Positions 1-12,794 of a DNA stretch of 64,000 bases are shown here, piece after piece. The first letter of the stretch is position 1. Every line of letters starts with the position of its first letter. A model generated the notes under the pieces. That model did not search any database and was not told where the DNA came from. It was given only the letters and a program-made list of their open reading frames with translations. The stretch lies in the NCBI RefSeq assembly GCF_055900595.2, contig NZ_CM148325.1; one strand, written 5' to 3'. The position numbers and the translations under genes are program-made.

Positions 1-1014
1 GATGACGACGCGGAGATGACCCACTCGGTGGCGGTAAACGTCTACCCGGCAACATCGCGGATGCCAAAGTTAACCATTGTGGTGGTGGATACCATTCCGG
101 TGGAGCTAAAAAGTTCCTATATGGTCTGGAGCTGGTTTATCTATGTGCTTTCAGCCAATCTGCTGTTAGTGATCCCGCTGCTGTGGGTAGCCGCCTGGTG
201 GAGTTTACGTCCCATCGAGGCCCTGGCAAAAGAAGTCCGCGAACTGGAAGAGCATAACCGCGAATTGCTCAATCCTGCCACAACACGAGAACTGACCAGT
301 CTGGTACGAAACCTGAACCGACTGTTAAAAAGTGAACGCGAACGTTACGACAAATACCGCACTACGCTCACCGACCTGACCCATAGTCTGAAAACGCCAC
401 TGGCGGTGCTGCAAAGTACGCTGCGTTCTCTGCGTAGTGAGAAGATGAGCGTCAGTGATGCAGAGCCGGTGATGCTGGAGCAAATCAGCCGCATTTCACA
501 GCAAATTGGCTACTACCTGCATCGTGCCAGTATGCGCGGAGGGACATTGCTTAGCCGCGAACTGCATCCGGTCGCCCCTCTGTTGGACAATCTCACCTCG
601 GCGCTGAACAAAGTGTATCAACGCAAAGGGGTCAATATCTCTCTCGATATTTCACCAGAGATCAGCTTTGTTGGTGAGCAGAACGATTTTGTCGAGGTGA
701 TGGGCAACGTGCTGGATAACGCCTGTAAATATTGCCTCGAGTTTGTCGAAATTTCTGCAAGGCAAACCGACGAGCATCTCTATATTGTGGTCGAGGATGA
801 TGGCCCCGGTATTCCATTAAGCAAGCGAGAGGTCATTTTCGACCGTGGTCAACGGGTTGATACTTTACGCCCTGGGCAAGGTGTAGGGCTGGCGGTAGCC
901 CGCGAAATCACCGAGCAGTATGAGGGTAAAATCGTCGCCGGAGAGAGCATGCTGGGCGGTGCGCGGATGGAGGTGATTTTTGGTCGCCAGCATTCTGCGC
1001 CGAAAGATGAATAA
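1..1014 (+). CDS. phoQ: Sensor histidine kinase PhoQ, C-terminal ~338 aa; 5' end lies outside the window
   Basis: Frame-1 translation from base 1 contains the membrane-proximal region, HAMP, phospho-acceptor and HATPase domains (...[17 protein letters not shown]...DDGPGIP...[12 protein letters not shown]...) and ends at stop 1012-1014; recognised as PhoQ from memory. Confidence 0.95.
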
Positions 1015-1089
1015 ATATGTCCATACTTCACGCATTACGTTAAGCATCCGTTATAATCGGTTGCAGATACCAGCCTGTGGATGCTTAAC

Positions 1090-2211
1090 ATGGAATACCA
1101 ACTCACTCTTAACTGGCCCGATTTTCTTGAACGTCACTGGCAGAAACGCCCGGTGGTGTTAAAACGCGGCTTTAATAATTTTATTGACCCGATCTCTCCA
1201 GACGAGTTGGCGGGTCTGGCGATGGAAAGCGAAGTCGACAGTCGACTGGTCAGTCACCAGGATGGCAAATGGCAGGTCAGCCACGGCCCGTTCGAAAGCT
1301 ACGATCATCTCGGTGAAACCAACTGGTCGTTACTGGTACAGGCAGTGAACCACTGGCATGAGCCGACCGCCGCACTGATGCGGCCGTTCCGTGAACTACC
1401 AGACTGGCGTATTGATGACCTGATGATCTCTTTTTCCGTACCTGGCGGCGGCGTCGGCCCACATCTCGATCAGTACGACGTGTTTATCATTCAGGGTACC
1501 GGACGTCGTCGCTGGCGAGTGGGCGAAAAGCTGCAAATGAAACAGCACTGCCCGCACCCGGATCTGTTACAGGTCGATCCGTTCGAAGCCATCATCGATG
1601 AAGAGCTGGAGCCTGGCGATATCCTTTATATTCCGCCAGGATTCCCGCATGAAGGCTACGCACTGGAAAATGCGATGAACTATTCCGTGGGTTTTCGCGC
1701 GCCAAATACGCGGGAACTGATTAGCGGATTTGCCGATTATGTGCTGCAACGTGAACTGGGCGGCAACTACTACAGCGATCCTGATGTTCCACCTCGCGCT
1801 CATCCTGCGGACGTTCTGCCGCAAGAGATGGATAAACTGCGTGAGATGATGCTCGAATTGATCAACCAGCCGGAACACTTTAAGCAATGGTTTGGCGAGT
1901 TTATATCCCAGTCACGTCATGAACTGGATATCGCGCCGCCAGAGCCGCCTTATCAGCCGGATGAAATCTACGATGCGCTGAAACAAGGTGATGTGCTGGT
2001 ACGCCTGGGGGGGCTGCGCGTATTGCGCATTGGCGACGACGTGTATGCCAATGGTGAGAAGATCGATTCCCCGCACCGTCCGGCACTGGATGCGCTCGCC
2101 AGCAACATTGCGCTGACCGCGGAGAATTTTGGTGATGCACTGGAAGATCCGTCATTTCTCGCGATGCTCGCAGCGCTGGTCAATAGCGGGTATTGGTTCT
2201 TCGAAGGGTAA
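1090..2211 (+). CDS. roxA: Ribosomal protein L16 arginine hydroxylase (JmjC/cupin 2-oxoglutarate oxygenase), YcfD/RoxA
   Basis: ORF 1081..2211; ATG at 1090 gives MEYQLTLNWPDF... (373 aa) as I recall for YcfD; position immediately downstream of phoQ. Confidence 0.9.
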   Translation: MEYQLTLNWPDFLERHWQKRPVVLKRGFNNFIDPISPDELAGLAMESEVDSRLVSHQDGKWQVSHGPFESYDHLGETNWSLLVQAVNHWHEPTAALMRPFRELPDWRIDDLMISFSVPGGGVGPHLDQYDVFIIQGTGRRRWRVGEKLQMKQHCPHPDLLQVDPFEAIIDEELEPGDILYIPPGFPHEGYALENAMNYSVGFRAPNTRELISGFADYVLQRELGGNYYSDPDVPPRAHPADVLPQEMDKLREMMLELINQPEHFKQWFGEFISQSRHELDIAPPEPPYQPDEIYDALKQGDVLVRLGGLRVLRIGDDVYANGEKIDSPHRPALDALASNIALTAENFGDALEDPSFLAMLAALVNSGYWFFEG

Positions 2212-2227
2212 GTTTGAAGTTAAGCTG

Positions 2228-2256
2228 GATGCGGCATCACATGCCGCATCCCTTTT
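2228..2256 (+). terminator. Hairpin (gatgcggcatcacatgccgcatc) followed by cttttc, between convergent roxA and pepT
   Basis: Inverted repeat plus T-rich tail read directly; sits between two convergent stops. Confidence 0.5.
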
Positions 2257-2258
2257 CG

Positions 2259-3485
2259 CTACTTCCGTTGCGCCGTTAACTCGGCAATACGGACGATCAC
2301 CTGCACCGCTTTTTCCATACCTTCCAGAGTCACAAATTCATGCTTACCATGGTAGTTGTAACCGCCAGTGAACAGGTTCGGGCACGGTAATCCCATAAAC
2401 GACAACTGCGCGCCGTCGGTACCGCCGCGGATCGGTTTCAGTTCCGGCTCAATATCGCAGTCACGCATCGCCTGCTGGGCGATATCGAGAATATGCGGAT
2501 GCTCAACCACTTTCTCGCGCATATTGTAGTAACTGTCTTCAATCACCAGTTCAATGTAGCAATCAGGATGTAACCCTTTGCCCACTTTTTTGGCGATCTC
2601 CATCATTTTACGTTTACGCGCTTCAAACTGTTTACGGTCGAAATCACGGATGATGTAGTGCATATCGGCCCGTTCAACGGTGCCTTTCATGCTCGCCAGG
2701 TGATAGAAACCTTCATAGCCTTCTGTCATTTCCGGGCTTTCATCCGCCGGAACTTCCGCATGAATACGTGCCGCCAGCGACAGCGCATTTACCATCACTC
2801 CTTTCGCCGTGCCCGGGTGAACATTGTTACCGACAATTTTGATATTGACCGACGCGGCGTTGAAGTTTTCAAACTCCAGTTCGCCGACGCCACCACCATC
2901 AACGGTGTAAGCCCAGCGGGCATCGAAGGCGTCAACATCAAAATGTTTCGCCCCTTTGCCCACTTCTTCATCCGGGGTAAAGGCGACGCGAATATCACCA
3001 TGCGGAATGTTTTTTTGTTGTAATACCGCCAGCGCGGTCATGATTTCTGCAACACCTGCTTTATCATCGGCACCTAACAAGGTTTTACCATCGGTGGTAA
3101 TCAGCGTCTGACCCAGTAGCTGATGCAGCACCGGGAACATAACCGGTGATAAAACTTCATCGCCGATACCCAGCGCAATATCGCCACCACGATAGTTTTC
3201 AACAATTTGCGGATTCACATTTTTGCCGCTGCAATCCGGTGAGGTATCCACATGAGAAATAAAGCCAATCGCCGGGATATCGCCAGGGACGTTAGCCGGT
3301 AACGTCGCCATCAAAGTGCCCTTCTCACTTAAGGTCACATTGATAAGCCCCATCTCTTCGAGCTGCTCTTTCAGCAGATGCAATAACTTCCATTGGCCTT
3401 CCGTGCTGGGAACCTGTCTCACCCCTGCCTTTGATTGGGTATCCAGAGACACGTAGTTCAAAAATCGCTCAAGTAGTTTATCCAT
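2259..3485 (-). CDS. pepT: Peptidase T (tripeptide aminopeptidase)
   Basis: ORF 2259..3527; internal ATG at 3485 preceded by gagggtgac RBS gives [18 protein letters not shown]... 408 aa. Confidence 0.95.
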
Positions 3486-3734
3486 GTAGTCACCCTCACT
3501 TTTTGTGACAACATTATTAAGAAGCAAGAAAAGACAAATATTGCGTCAGGTCACTTTTAGCCCTGCAAGCGGGAATATTTATCAGCATTACCTTAATGAA
3601 TATAAAGCTAAGCCAGTAATTCACAACAAAGATTGGCGATTCAAGCGGTTTGCCGTAGAATTACCGCCCTCATTAAGAGTCACCAAGGTGGTTAACCACA
3701 AACCCCGCATCGGTAAGCCATCCGTTGCGTTTAC

Positions 3735-4871
3735 ATGGGACAGAGTAAAAAATTGAATAAACAACCGAGTTCGCTTTCACCGCTGGTGCAATTGGCGGGA
3801 ATTCGCAAATGCTTTGATGGTAAAGAGGTCATTCCCCAGCTGGATCTGACTATCAACAATGGCGAGTTCCTCACGCTGCTTGGCCCTTCTGGCTGCGGTA
3901 AAACAACCGTTCTTCGCCTGATTGCAGGTCTGGAAACTGTTGATTCCGGACGCATCATGCTGGATAACGAGGACATCACCCTCGTTCCGGCGGAAAACCG
4001 CTATGTGAACACTGTTTTCCAAAGCTACGCACTTTTCCCCCACATGACCGTGTTCGAAAATGTGGCCTTTGGGTTGCGCATGCAAAAAACCCCCGCTGCT
4101 GAAATTACGCCCCGCGTGATGGAAGCCCTGCGGATGGTGCAGCTGGAAACCTTCGCTCAACGTAAACCGCATCAGCTTTCTGGTGGTCAACAGCAACGCG
4201 TCGCCATTGCTCGCGCGGTGGTTAACAAGCCTCGTCTGTTGTTGCTGGATGAGTCGCTCTCAGCGCTGGATTACAAACTGCGCAAGCAAATGCAGAACGA
4301 GCTGAAAGCGTTACAGCGTAAGCTTGGCATTACATTCGTGTTCGTAACTCACGACCAGGAAGAAGCACTCACCATGTCGGACAGGATTGTGGTGATGCGC
4401 GATGGTCGCATTGAGCAAGACGGCACGCCGCGTGAAATCTACGAAGAGCCGAAAAACCTGTTTGTTGCTGGGTTTATCGGTGAAATCAATATGTTTAATG
4501 CCACGGTCATCGAACGTCTCGACGAGCAGCGCGTACGCGCCAACGTTGAAGGCCGCGAGTGTAATATCTACGTTAACTTCGGCGTTGAACCGGGGCAAAA
4601 ACTGCATGTTCTGCTGCGCCCGGAAGACTTACGTGTTGAAGAGATTAACGACGACAACCACGCCGAAGGGCTGATTGGTTACGTTCGCGAGCGTAATTAC
4701 AAAGGCATGACGCTGGAGTCGGTTGTTGAGCTGGAAAATGGCAAGATGGTGATGGTCAGCGAATTCTTCAATGAAGACGATCCTGACTTTGACCACTCTC
4801 TCGACCAAAAAATGGCCATTAATTGGGTAGAAAGCTGGGAGGTCGTACTGGCTGATGAAGAACACAAGTAA
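3735..4871 (+). CDS. potA: Spermidine/putrescine ABC transporter ATP-binding protein
   Basis: 378 aa; Walker [13 protein letters not shown] signature LSGGQQQRV, Walker B LLLDE. Confidence 0.97.
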
Positions 4872-5712
4872 GTTCCAGAATGTAGTGATTGTCACTATCG
4901 TCGGTTGGCTTGTGTTGTTTGTCTTTCTGCCCAACCTGATGATCATTGGCACCAGCTTTTTGACCCGCGACGACGCCAGTTTCGTCAAAATGGTCTTTAC
5001 GCTGGATAACTACACGCGTCTGCTCGATCCGCTCTATTTTGAAGTGCTATTGCACTCGCTGAATATGGCGCTGATCGCCACCCTCGCCTGCCTGGTGCTG
5101 GGCTATCCCTTTGCCTGGTTTCTGGCGAAGCTGCCACACAAGGTGCGTCCGCTGCTGCTGTTTCTGCTGATTGTTCCGTTCTGGACCAACTCATTGATTC
5201 GTATCTACGGGCTGAAAATTTTCCTCAGCACCAAAGGCTATCTCAACGAGTTTTTGCTCTGGCTGGGCGTTATCGATACACCAATTCGCATTATGTTCAC
5301 ACCCAGTGCGGTGATTATCGGTCTGGTTTACATTCTGCTGCCGTTTATGGTGATGCCGCTGTACTCCAGTATCGAAAAACTGGATAAGCCGTTGCTGGAG
5401 GCGGCGCGCGATCTCGGTGCCAGCAAGTTGCAGACCTTTATCCGTATCATTATCCCACTGACGATGCCGGGGATTATTGCCGGATGTCTGCTGGTGATGC
5501 TGCCAGCGATGGGCCTGTTCTATGTGTCTGACCTGATGGGCGGTGCGAAAAACCTGCTGATTGGTAACGTCATCAAGGTCCAGTTCCTCAATATTCGTGA
5601 CTGGCCGTTTGGTGCTGCCACCAGCATTACGCTGACTATCGTAATGGGCCTGATGTTGCTGGTTTACTGGCGCGCTTCTCGTCTGCTGAATAAGAAGGTG
5701 GAACTCGAATGA
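4855..5712 (+). CDS. potB: Spermidine/putrescine ABC transporter permease
   Basis: Polytopic membrane ORF; ATG at 4855 overlaps potA by 17 nt; an in-frame GTG at 4885 would give the 275-aa form I recall for K-12, start not resolved. Confidence 0.92.
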
Positions 5713-6503
5713 TCGGTCGACTGCTTCGCGGCGGTTTTATGACCGCTATCTACGCGTACCTGTATATCCCAATCATTATTTTGATTGTGAACTCCTTTAA
5801 CAGCTCGCGCTTTGGCATCAACTGGCAGGGTTTTACCACCAAATGGTATAGCCTGCTGATGAACAACGACAGCCTGTTACAGGCAGCTCAGCATTCTCTG
5901 ACGATGGCGGTGTTTTCGGCGACGTTTGCTACGCTTATCGGTTCACTGACGGCAGTTGCGCTGTACCGTTATCGCTTTCGTGGTAAGCCGTTCGTTAGCG
6001 GAATGCTGTTTGTGGTGATGATGTCACCAGATATCGTAATGGCGATTTCGCTGCTGGTGCTGTTTATGCTGCTGGGTATTCAGCTTGGCTTCTGGTCGCT
6101 GCTGTTCTCGCATATCACCTTCTGCCTGCCGTTTGTGGTGGTGACGGTGTATTCGCGCCTGAAAGGTTTTGATGTGCGAATGCTGGAAGCGGCGAAAGAT
6201 CTCGGTGCCAGCGAATTTACCATTCTGCGAAAAATCATTCTGCCACTGGCAATGCCTGCGGTGGCGGCGGGCTGGGTGTTAAGCTTTACCCTGTCGATGG
6301 ACGATGTAGTAGTTTCTTCGTTCGTCACCGGACCAAGCTATGAAATTCTGCCGTTAAAAATTTATTCGATGGTCAAAGTCGGCGTATCGCCGGAAGTTAA
6401 CGCGCTGGCAACCATATTACTGGTGCTGTCGCTGGTGATGGTAATTGCCAGCCAGCTTATTGCTCGTGATAAAACGAAAGGTAACACAGGGGACGTTAAA
6501 TGA
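5709..6503 (+). CDS. potC: Spermidine/putrescine ABC transporter permease
   Basis: 264 aa membrane protein; 4-nt overlap with potB stop (translational coupling). Confidence 0.95.
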   Translation: MIGRLLRGGFMTAIYAYLYIPIIILIVNSFNSSRFGINWQGFTTKWYSLLMNNDSLLQAAQHSLTMAVFSATFATLIGSLTAVALYRYRFRGKPFVSGMLFVVMMSPDIVMAISLLVLFMLLGIQLGFWSLLFSHITFCLPFVVVTVYSRLKGFDVRMLEAAKDLGASEFTILRKIILPLAMPAVAAGWVLSFTLSMDDVVVSSFVTGPSYEILPLKIYSMVKVGVSPEVNALATILLVLSLVMVIASQLIARDKTKGNTGDVK

Positions 6504-7546
6504 AAAAATGGTCACGCCACCTGCTCGCGGCGGGTGCTCTGGCACTGGGCATGAGCGCCGCTCACGCCGATGACAACAACACGCTGTATTTCTACAACTG
6601 GACCGAGTACGTGCCGCCAGGACTGCTTGAACAGTTCACCAAAGAAACCGGTATTAAGGTTATCTATTCGACTTACGAGTCGAACGAAACCATGTACGCG
6701 AAGCTGAAAACGTACAAAGACGGTGCCTATGACCTGGTGGTTCCTTCAACCTATTACGTCGATAAAATGCGTAAAGAAGGGATGATCCAGAAGATCGATA
6801 AGTCGAAGTTAAGCAATTTCAGCAACCTCGATCCAGACATGCTCAACAAGCCGTTTGACCCGAATAACGACTATTCCATTCCGTATATCTGGGGTGCGAC
6901 GGCGATTGGCGTTAACGGTGATGCGGTGGATCCGAAATCTGTCACCAGCTGGGCCGATCTGTGGAAACCTGAGTACAAAGGCAGCCTGCTGCTGACCGAC
7001 GATGCCCGTGAAGTGTTCCAGATGGCGCTGCGCAAACTGGGCTACTCCGGTAACACCACCGATCCGAAAGAGATTGAAGCTGCGTATAACGAGCTGAAAA
7101 AACTGATGCCAAACGTAGCGGCGTTTAACTCCGATAACCCAGCTAACCCGTACATGGAAGGCGAAGTTAACCTCGGCATGATCTGGAACGGTTCCGCTTT
7201 CGTTGCACGCCAGGCGGGTACGCCAATTGACGTGGTATGGCCGAAAGAAGGCGGCATTTTCTGGATGGACAGCCTGGCGATCCCGGCAAATGCCAAAAAC
7301 AAAGAGGGCGCGCTGAAATTGATCAACTTCCTGCTGCGCCCGGATGTGGCAAAACAGGTTGCTGAAACTATCGGTTATCCAACGCCAAACCTCGCCGCGC
7401 GTAAGCTGTTAAGCCCGGAAATAGCGGACGACAAGACGCTCTACCCGGATGCTGAAACCATTAAAAATGGCGAATGGCAGAATGACGTTGGCGCAGCCAG
7501 CAGCATTTATGAAGAGTATTATCAGAAGCTGAAAGCAGGACGTTAA
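6500..7546 (+). CDS. potD: Spermidine/putrescine periplasmic binding protein
   Basis: 348 aa with N-terminal signal peptide (MKKWSRHLLAAGALALGMSAAHA); 4-nt overlap with potC. Confidence 0.96.
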   Translation: MKKWSRHLLAAGALALGMSAAHADDNNTLYFYNWTEYVPPGLLEQFTKETGIKVIYSTYESNETMYAKLKTYKDGAYDLVVPSTYYVDKMRKEGMIQKIDKSKLSNFSNLDPDMLNKPFDPNNDYSIPYIWGATAIGVNGDAVDPKSVTSWADLWKPEYKGSLLLTDDAREVFQMALRKLGYSGNTTDPKEIEAAYNELKKLMPNVAAFNSDNPANPYMEGEVNLGMIWNGSAFVARQAGTPIDVVWPKEGGIFWMDSLAIPANAKNKEGALKLINFLLRPDVAKQVAETIGYPTPNLAARKLLSPEIADDKTLYPDAETIKNGEWQNDVGAASSIYEEYYQKLKAGR

Positions 7547-7554
7547 TTCAGCAA

Positions 7555-7584
7555 GCGGGCGGTGGTATTACCGCCCGTTTTTTC
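7555..7584 (+). terminator. Rho-independent terminator of potABCD
   Basis: gcgggcgg-tggtatta-ccgcccg stem-loop followed by tttttt, 10 nt after the potD stop. Confidence 0.75.
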
Positions 7585-7650
7585 ATTTAGCAAGGATGTG
7601 GCTAATGTTGCTGTTATGGACGAGTAAACGCTAAAAGAGGCAGTAAATAT

Positions 7651-7747
7651 GCCAGATGCGGCGTCAACGCCTTCTCTGGTCTACGACACCCGCAAATTCA
7701 ATTCATTGCGCCCCATCGCAGGCCTGATAAGCGTAGCGCATCAGGCA
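7651..7747. repeat. REP/BIME-like palindromic units in the potD-cobB intergenic region
   Basis: gccagatgcggcgtcaacgcc... and gcaggcctgataagcgtagcgcatcaggc resemble enterobacterial REP sequences. Confidence 0.6.
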
Positions 7748-7759
7748 ATGCTTCCTGCT

Positions 7760-8581
7760 TTATAAGCCCTTCAGCAACTTTTCAACAAACTCTGGCACCA
7801 CCTGGCTTGCCGGGCCGTAATATTTCTCGGCAAATTCATTACCGACCTGACTCGGTTCAAGATTGAGTTCCACAGTGTGCGCACCATGCAGTTTCGCTTC
7901 GTGAACAAATCCAGCCGCCGGATAAACATGCCCGGAAGTACCAATGGCAATGAAAATATCGGCCATCGACAACGCCATATAAATTTCATCCATGCCGAGT
8001 GGCATTTCGCCAAACCACACTACGTGCGGGCGCAAGGGTGCCGGGAACTGGCAACAATGGCATTTATCTTCTGGCGTAACGTCTCCGGTCCAGTCGAGAA
8101 CCTGACCACTTTGCGAACAGCGAACTTTCAGCAGTTCCCCATGCATATGAATAACATTGGTATTACCTGCGCGTTCATGCAGGTTGTCGATATTCTGCGT
8201 CACCAGCAAAAAGCGATCGCCGAGAGCGTCTTGCAGTTTAGCTAGCGCAAGATGCGCGGCGTTAGGCTGAATTTCTGGCTGCTGTAGCTGTCGACGACGG
8301 GCGTTATAAAACGCTTGCACCAGTTCAGGATCGCGATCGAAACCTTCCGGCGTTGCCACATCTTCAACCCGATGTTCTTCCCACAGGCCATCTGCGGCGC
8401 GAAAGGTACGAATACCTGATTCCGCAGAAATCCCTGCCCCTGTCAGTACGAGTACTCTTGGTTTTTCCATTGCTTCCGGCACCACTTTATCTCTGAAAAA
8501 AATACGCTGACGCAAACGCTCGCGCAGGCGGCGTTTATTTTTACGAAAACGACTTAACCGATGACCCCGACGCGACAGCAT
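7760..8581 (-). CDS. cobB: NAD-dependent protein deacylase (sirtuin) CobB
   Basis: 273-aa [22 protein letters not shown]...[14 protein letters not shown]...; sirtuin Zn-binding Cys pairs present. Confidence 0.95.
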
Positions 8582-8596
8582 AGCAACCTCTGTTGT

Positions 8597-9508
8597 TTAA
8601 TCGGTTAGATGTAGGAAAGCCGCACCACGCATTCCTCCCGCATCACCGTGGCGCGCGCGTTCAATGCGCGGAACACGAGCTACAGGTAAGAGATGACGAG
8701 GCAGCCTGTCCGCCAGTTGCGTTGTGATTGCCGGGAAATTCGATAAGCCACCACCAATGACGACCAGGTCAGGGTCAACAATGGTCAGGATATTTCCCAT
8801 ACAAACCGCTAACAAATCCAGATAACGCTCAACGTGCGCCCTTGCCTGCTCATCGCCTTGATCATAAAGCGCAATAATTTCGGGAGCCTGCAACGGTTGA
8901 TGATAATAGTGTTGATACAGCCACGCAAAACCGCGACCAGACAGATAATTTTCAATGCAGCCATGCTGACCACAGCCGCAGCGGCGTAACGGGAAATCCA
9001 ACCCCATCATGGTTAACGCATCAACCGGCAGACGCATATGGCCAAACTCGCCGGTAATATAGCTTTTACCGGTAATTGGTTTACCGTTGAAAATCAGCCC
9101 GCCGCCAACGCCGGTGCCGAGAATCAACCCCATCACCAGTGGATATTGAGTAAATTCATCATCCCAGGCTTCTGAAAGGGCAAAACAGTTGGCATCGTTA
9201 TCAAGGCGGACATCGCGATCAAGACGTACGCTCAGGTCGGCACGCAGCGGTTTACCGCTGGCAGCGGGGACATTGGCAGCATACAGCGTACCATCTTCTG
9301 TTTCCGGCATTCCCGGAATACCGATGCCTACAGAACCTTTACAGCCAAAACGCTTATCGGCTTCAGCCACCAGCTCGCACACTGCATCTAAAAATGCGTC
9401 ATAGCTGTCACGCGGTGTCGGCACCCGCTTTTCCCACTGCAACTGCCGACCGCTATCAAACACGCCAAGCGCAATTTTTGTTCCACCAATATCAAACCCG
9501 TAATACAT
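8597..9508 (-). CDS. nagK: N-acetyl-D-glucosamine kinase (ROK family)
   Basis: ORF 8597..9568; ATG at 9508 with aggag RBS gives [18 protein letters not shown]... 303 aa. Confidence 0.95.
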
Positions 9509-9536
9509 TGCCGCTCCTTGTTTTAATGTACTGCCT

Positions 9537-12794
<3,258 letters not shown>

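Follow-up and report, generated by a model that had tools for sequence, protein, structure and literature searches.

In the insertion sequences IS10 and IS50, the transcription start site of the transposase gene lies between the two arms of an inverted repeat, the ribosome-binding site is covered by the 3' arm, and silencing affects only transcripts that enter from outside. The same fold-back shielding is used by IS50/Tn5. Fold-back inhibition of outside-initiated transcripts was described for IS10/Tn10 (Davis, Simons & Kleckner 1985, Cell 43:379, as cited in PMC13181058). Two further classes of element were compared with the locus described below. The first comprises sigma-70 promoters that rely on their -10 element and occupy short spacers within gene clusters (sub-operon promoters). 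The second comprises Rho-independent terminators and stabilising 3' stem-loops, of which REP elements are an example.

The DNA analysed (the window) was a stretch of 64,000 nucleotides from contig NZ_CM148325.1 of NCBI RefSeq assembly GCF_055900595.2. Its sequence is 99-100% identical to E. coli chromosomes with phoQ and roxA annotation. phoQ and roxA are separated by a spacer of 75 nt, and pepT lies convergent to and downstream of roxA. The original prediction, made from the window alone, placed in this spacer a perfect 11-bp inverted repeat that brackets a TATAAT hexamer and ends at the roxA start codon. These points of anatomy all hold. The arms are 100% complementary with 29 nt between them, the hexamer lies inside the repeat at 1052-1057, and the right arm ends at 1089, immediately before the annotated roxA ATG at 1090. 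The features of the locus are as follows.

1-1014, plus strand: 3' part of phoQ, encoding the sensor kinase (open reading frame 16-1014, RefSeq annotation of the identical sequence, TAA stop at 1012-1014).
1027-1034, plus strand: expected place of a -35 element for the roxA promoter (TTCACGCA), a poor match to TTGACA at any spacing of 16-19 bp, from the sequence and the alignment consensus.
1039-1049, plus strand: left arm of the repeat (GTTAAGCATCC), promoter spacer DNA from -26 to -16 as counted from the mapped start site.
1052-1057, plus strand: -10 element of the roxA promoter (consensus hexamer TATAAT), within the repeat's loop, with start sites mapped 8 nt downstream.
1059-1075, plus strand: inner helix GGUUG (1059-1063) / CAGCC (1071-1075) of the MFE structures, spanning the start site.
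1065, plus strand: roxA transcription start site, the A of a conserved CAG, from two published maps; it gives a leader of 25 nt.
1079-1089, plus strand: right arm of the repeat (GGATGCTTAAC), +15 to +25 of the roxA leader, comprising a Shine-Dalgarno-like GGA (1079-1081) and the spacer to the ATG.
1090-2211, plus strand: roxA (ycfD), ribosomal protein L16 arginine hydroxylase, an oxygenase that modifies the ribosome, from the open reading frame and annotation; the ATGGA start is kept in 80/80 species loci.

An alternative, in-frame roxA start at ATG 1081 (MLNMEYQ...) was considered and rejected. It is not conserved beyond Escherichia and Salmonella, and the ATG at 1090 is universal.

Folding of the region as RNA gave a stable structure. 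The free energy was -18.2 kcal/mol for 1039-1089 (z = -4.67; 0/200 shuffles folded equally well) and -20.4 kcal/mol in a context of 71 nt (z = -2.6). The inner helix at 1059-1063/1071-1075 is small and is predicted for read-through RNA only; its conservation is not convincing (56% of cells pair across genera). Perfect 11-bp inverted repeats with a spacer of 3-40 nt occur five times in the 64-kb window, against 0.83 expected from first-order Markov simulations (n=200). At least one such repeat was present in 90/200 simulations, and a single repeat of this kind per 64 kb is therefore unremarkable.

This background of about 0.8 repeats per 64 kb favours incidental complementarity as an explanation. 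The two arms would then be conserved separately, the left as promoter spacer or possible factor site and the right as ribosome-binding site plus spacer, and the 11-bp match would have arisen by chance in the E. coli lineage with no selected function. We consider this explanation possible, though rather unlikely. The specific placement of the repeat, in which the loop holds a mapped start site and the 3' arm ends exactly at the ATG, is less likely to have arisen by chance and counts against it.

The element is single-copy per genome (5430 places in 5427 E. coli records), and within the window the exact arm motif is found at the two arms only. A repetitive extragenic element (REP, BIME, ERIC or MITE) or the remnant of a mobile element was rejected on the grounds that the repeat is single-copy and has no flanking direct repeats. 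Searches with the Rfam 15 covariance models returned chance-level matches only, with E values of at least 3.5 and scores far under the gathering scores, and the region had no match in the phage database.

The TATAAT at 1052-1057, which the original prediction treated only as enclosed by the repeat, is the -10 element of roxA's own promoter, and transcription starts at 1065, within the loop of the repeat. Both the promoter and the start site are already known from the literature. The ycfD start of Kim et al. (2012; PMC3415461, supplementary file 2) is given as NC_000913.2 1187488 on the minus strand, with 108 reads and a 25-nt 5' UTR, and the sequence printed upstream of it ends ...CATCCGTTATAATCGGTTGCA. 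A monocistronic b1128 transcript from 1188265 (reverse) of NC_000913.3 is reported by Yan et al. (2018; PMC6131387, supplementary file 4), where the monocistronic roxA transcript agrees with the RegulonDB operon. The roxA ATG lies at 1,188,240 in NC_000913.3, and both published start sites convert to window position 1065. This position had been predicted beforehand as the A of the conserved CAG found 6-9 nt downstream of the hexamer, and both maps agree with it exactly. The roxA 5' end, by which the original prediction was to be judged, is thus fixed inside the repeat loop by two independent published maps. Supplementary data of Romero 2014, Adams 2021 and Ettwiller 2016 contained no match to the roxA region, and a Klebsiella roxA start site was not found in the Kim 2012 data.

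Conservation of the promoter was assessed in Enterobacteriaceae with 80 species-level roxA loci. Within the spacer, conservation is highest in (A/T)TCCGTTATAATC, which is nearly invariant over the 80 species. The -10 hexamer lies 30-38 nt before the roxA ATG and reads TATAAT in 75/80 loci and TATACT in 5/80; the next base is C in every locus (80/80). The promoter has the sigma-70 characters of a -10 element near TATAAT with a mapped start 8 nt on, and its core is conserved at orthologous positions. No -35 element resembling TTGACA is present at 16-18 bp. The best candidates were CACGCA at 17 bp, which is weakly conserved in the alignment consensus, and TTCACG at 19 bp. The promoter scan called nothing here because there is no acceptable -35. 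The roxA promoter seems to depend on its perfect -10 together with a G at -14. In its TATAAT, the G at -14, the start 8 nt on and its monocistronic transcript it resembles the sub-operon promoters introduced above, and it is unusual among them only in having no recognisable -35 and in how strongly the TCCG directly before the -10 is conserved.

The TCCG directly before the -10 (ATCCGT or TTCCGT in 65/80 species) and the C directly after it (80/80; 1047-1058) are conserved beyond what a sigma-70 -10 needs. These bases could represent a site for an unrecognised factor, an unusual extended -10, or a pairing partner of the CGGA(A/T) Shine-Dalgarno region. Together with the symmetrical flanking of the core promoter by the arms, this conservation would also fit a DNA operator, in which a dimeric or looping regulator would bind the two 11-bp arms as half-sites and clamp the -10 and start site of roxA. 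Such an operator is very improbable in our judgement. A centre-to-centre spacing of 40 bp is atypical of bacterial operators, the outer bases of the arms are unconserved across genera, and literature searches on roxA/ycfD regulation returned nothing relevant and no roxA regulator.

Three further candidate features were set aside. The half-sites of a PhoP-box-like direct repeat, CGTTAA-N5-CGTTAT (1038-1054), match TGTTTA, as judged by eye, at only 4/6 and 3/6 positions; this direct repeat also overlaps the -10, and beyond the Escherichia/Salmonella/Citrobacter group its first half is not conserved. Pairing of the -10 with codons 1-3 (ATAATCC/GGATTAT), seen in some genera, was regarded as a coincidence, since the -10 is constant and codon 2 alternates between GAT and GAA. 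A sigma-S SELEX peak (Shimada 2017) lies inside phoQ, approximately 385 bp upstream of roxA, and is too far away and too coarse to be assigned to the roxA promoter.

The position of the start site determines which RNA can form the hairpin. Because the left arm lies upstream of 1065, roxA's own 25-nt leader lacks this arm and cannot form the hairpin; hairpin formation is possible only in RNA that enters from phoPQ. phoQ is the source of transcription reading through into roxA. Long reads (Yan et al. 2018; PMC6131387) include operon variants b1130|b1129|b1128 (phoP-phoQ-roxA) from the phoP start sites, with phoPQ-only and roxA-alone transcripts beside them. phoQ was directly upstream of roxA, at a distance of 55-197 nt, in all loci examined (74/74). 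This anatomy, with the promoter inside the repeat, the start site in the loop and the arms placed as described, is in our view very probably correct.

The reading that we prefer is that the hairpin, present only in read-through RNA, masks the roxA ribosome-binding site. We give this a little under an even chance. Read-through RNA would be produced from the PhoP-activated phoPQ promoters, its arms would pair (about -18 kcal/mol), and the roxA ribosome-binding site would be buried. RoxA would then be made mainly from its own short, unstructured mRNA, and its level would be largely independent of PhoPQ induction, by the same logic that protects the transposase genes of IS10 and IS50 against external promoters. 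The left arm begins 25 nt past the phoQ stop, so a ribosome that terminates there would be expected to leave the stem intact.

Predicted opening costs are consistent with masking. Opening the ribosome-binding region 1075-1102 was predicted to cost 4.6 kcal/mol in the mRNA from the roxA promoter, against 13.9-15.9 kcal/mol in read-through RNA with a context 190-450 nt long. The native roxA leader alone was less structured than its shuffles (z = +1.43). In a 250-nt E. coli context, masking was 14.0 against 10.2 +/- 3.3 with shuffled upstream sequence, a modest excess given that 2/20 shuffles reached the native value; the modest size of this excess favours incidental complementarity. That masking is both real and selected likewise falls slightly short of an even chance in our estimation.

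Compared with IS10 and IS50, the roxA element has the same three elements of architecture. The arms flank the start site of the gene itself, so that the native mRNA lacks the 5' arm. The Shine-Dalgarno and start codon region (the GGA) is overlain by the 3' arm, and its predicted opening cost rises from 4.6 to approximately 14-16 kcal/mol. The hairpin can form only in transcripts from upstream, and such transcripts do cross the roxA element. The differences are that roxA is a chromosomal housekeeping gene and not a transposase gene, that its upstream transcription comes from a defined regulated operon (phoPQ) and not from a fortuitous outside promoter, and that its loop is long (29 nt) and holds the -10 element. 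To our knowledge, no antisense RNA partner is known for the roxA element.

Coupling of roxA translation initiation to upstream transcription had been one of two functions originally suggested for the structure. One half of this suggestion stands, in that a structure of phoPQ read-through RNA touches roxA initiation, and the direction of the predicted effect is reversed. As roxA's own mRNA lacks the left arm, any translational action is restricted to read-through RNA and would uncouple roxA translation from phoPQ transcription. The most likely function, if the model of masking is right, would be insulation and not coupling.

The second suggested function was that of a phoPQ 3' stem-loop. By its structure, the repeat does not qualify as an intrinsic terminator. 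The stem continues into ATGGAATACC with no U-tract, its loop of 29 nt is long, the site received no call in the terminator scan, and full-length phoP-phoQ-roxA reads exist. The spacer contains no intrinsic terminator in E. coli, and no canonical one in 73/74 related species. In common with Rho-independent terminators and 3' stabilising stem-loops, the repeat is a stable stem-loop soon after the last phoPQ stop. It differs from these elements in that it lacks a U-tract, has a 29-nt loop, is single-copy, is crossed by documented read-through, and overlaps the promoter and ribosome-binding site of the next gene.

A stem at this position might nonetheless act at the 3' end of the phoPQ mRNA. On transcripts that end or are cut in roxA, 3' exonucleases would stop at the stem base, and this would set the stability and the 3' end of the phoPQ mRNA. 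A stable stem (-18 kcal/mol) that begins 25 nt past the phoQ stop, and the presence of phoPQ-only transcripts beside read-through ones, speak for such a protective hairpin. A GC-rich hairpin without a U-tract, separate from the repeat, is also found just after phoQ in other genera, for example Klebsiella and Pluralibacter, and the presence of a hairpin behind phoQ may therefore be general. Against this, no U-tract follows the E. coli stem and the terminator scan is silent, the stem decays in close relatives without compensation, and the coincidence of the 3' arm with the Shine-Dalgarno/ATG boundary is left unexplained. Protection as the explanation of the repeat is improbable in our assessment. 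The two functions may coexist; the hairpin could slow 3'-to-5' decay of phoPQ mRNA and still mask the ribosome-binding site.

A second stem was observed at 2227-2251, between the convergent genes roxA and pepT. It comprises 11 GC-rich base pairs with a 3-nt loop (GGATGCGGCAT CAC ATGCCGCATCC) followed by CTTTTCGC, and it was called by the terminator scan (roxA/pepT). It is likely the roxA terminator and is possibly bidirectional. It is also one of the five perfect 11-bp inverted repeats of the window.

Conservation of the arms was examined within E. coli and beyond. Positions 1030-1100 (71 nt) are identical in 5422/5427 E. coli records, whereas flanking 71-nt coding windows have at least one mismatch in 888 and 1886 records. 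This near-invariance relative to flanking coding sequence speaks for selected masking and argues against incidental complementarity, as does the fact that sigma-70 promoter spacer DNA is not usually so conserved. Salmonella has an identical left arm and Citrobacter a nearly identical one, though the spacer further upstream has diverged. Only E. coli and one cryptic Escherichia lineage have all 11 base pairs of the stem. Pairs are kept at 7/11 positions in Escherichia sp. E1V33, 10/11 in E. albertii, 10/11 in Salmonella and 8-10/11 in Citrobacter. Arm changes in these relatives are almost all uncompensated, with one clear compensatory pair in C. sedlakii.

Across 42 genera-level sequences, 57% of cells pair and only the inner (A/T)TCC / GGA(T/A) core persists. 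In more distant genera, pairing is reduced to a core of 3-5 bp, in which alternation between A-U and U-A tracks clades. The second G of the GGA is invariant over the 42 aligned species. Each arm has an independent reason for conservation, the left as promoter spacer and the right as ribosome-binding site. The substitutions in sister species, which are mostly disruptive and uncompensated, and the proportion of 57% across genera favour incidental complementarity. Conservation of the arms, on which the original prediction was also made to depend, is therefore partial: the arms are invariant within E. coli and keep 7-10/11 pairs in other Escherichia, Salmonella and Citrobacter, and they are reduced to the short core in distant genera. 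The evidence for selection on the pairing is mixed.

Masking was also calculated across the family, with dinucleotide-shuffled upstream sequence as the reference. Native upstream sequence masked the roxA site more strongly than shuffled sequence in 61/74 loci (mean z 1.4) and, in a re-run on a subsample, in 33/40 loci (z 2.1); the controls from the same loci showed no excess (pepT 6/28, z -0.4; phoP 18/38, z 0.2), and all of these cross-species statistics ignore phylogenetic relatedness. A family-wide excess that is absent for pepT and phoP counts against incidental complementarity. It is possible, though on balance doubtful, that roxA is translationally insulated from stress-induced phoPQ across Enterobacteriaceae by lineage-specific pairings that form in read-through RNA only, with no terminators involved. 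The 11-bp stem of E. coli and a different 7-bp stem over the start site in Buttiauxella would then be instances of an evolutionarily maintained chromosomal counterpart of transposon fold-back, a suggestion that we offer tentatively and regard as rather unlikely.

The Buttiauxella stem was observed in 6 loci. It is a perfect 7-bp stem, CGGCAGG/CCTGCCG, that extends from approximately 35 to 10 nt upstream of the roxA ATG, lies over the predicted start site and ends at the Shine-Dalgarno. It has the largest predicted read-through-specific masking in the family, with an opening cost of 15-19.5 kcal/mol against 5.7-7.8 kcal/mol for shuffled upstream sequence.

In regulatory terms the repeat is a minor and ordinary feature, at most one more instance of a trick already known, and it raises no long-standing question. 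What is modestly new is that it may be an insulator: with the 5' arm upstream of the gene's start site, RoxA synthesis would be tied to roxA's own promoter despite PhoP-induced read-through. If masking is confirmed, the locus would be a clean chromosomal example of promoter-dependent translatability, and roxA mRNA level should not be equated with RoxA level under low-Mg2+ or antimicrobial-peptide stress.

Insertions were observed at the locus in other E. coli genomes. In E. coli O157:H7 FRIK944, an island of approximately 12.5 kb lies exactly between phoQ and roxA (approximately 190-12700 of that locus). Its genes encode a tyrosine integrase, Icd-like proteins, a RepA-type helicase, SSB, PerC, major capsid and head-decoration proteins and a small terminase subunit, and an IS3 is inserted beside the integrase gene. 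These genes are consistent with a capsid-forming PICI-type phage satellite, and the island may be the published EcCIEDL933 element. The island junctions share AAATATGTCC (window 1013-1022), which overlaps the phoQ stop and lies 17 nt upstream of the left arm. Position 1020, inside this att core, is polymorphic, with C in K-12 MG1655 and T in the window (ATATGCCC vs ATATGTCC). The repeat itself was rejected as the attB site of the O157:H7 island; the shared core 1013-1022 is outside the repeat, which is intact on the roxA side.

The phoQ-roxA query was split in approximately 600/5425 E. coli genomes. In the split strains, roxA is severed from phoPQ read-through, and its promoter and the repeat are intact. 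In the chicken isolate GPEC60-33-648, an IS10-like element (ISVsa5) is inserted within the right arm with a 9-bp target duplication, TGCTTAACA (1082-1090), and the roxA ATG is parted from the promoter and the GGA element. The target consensus of IS10 is NGCTNAGCN, which the duplication resembles.
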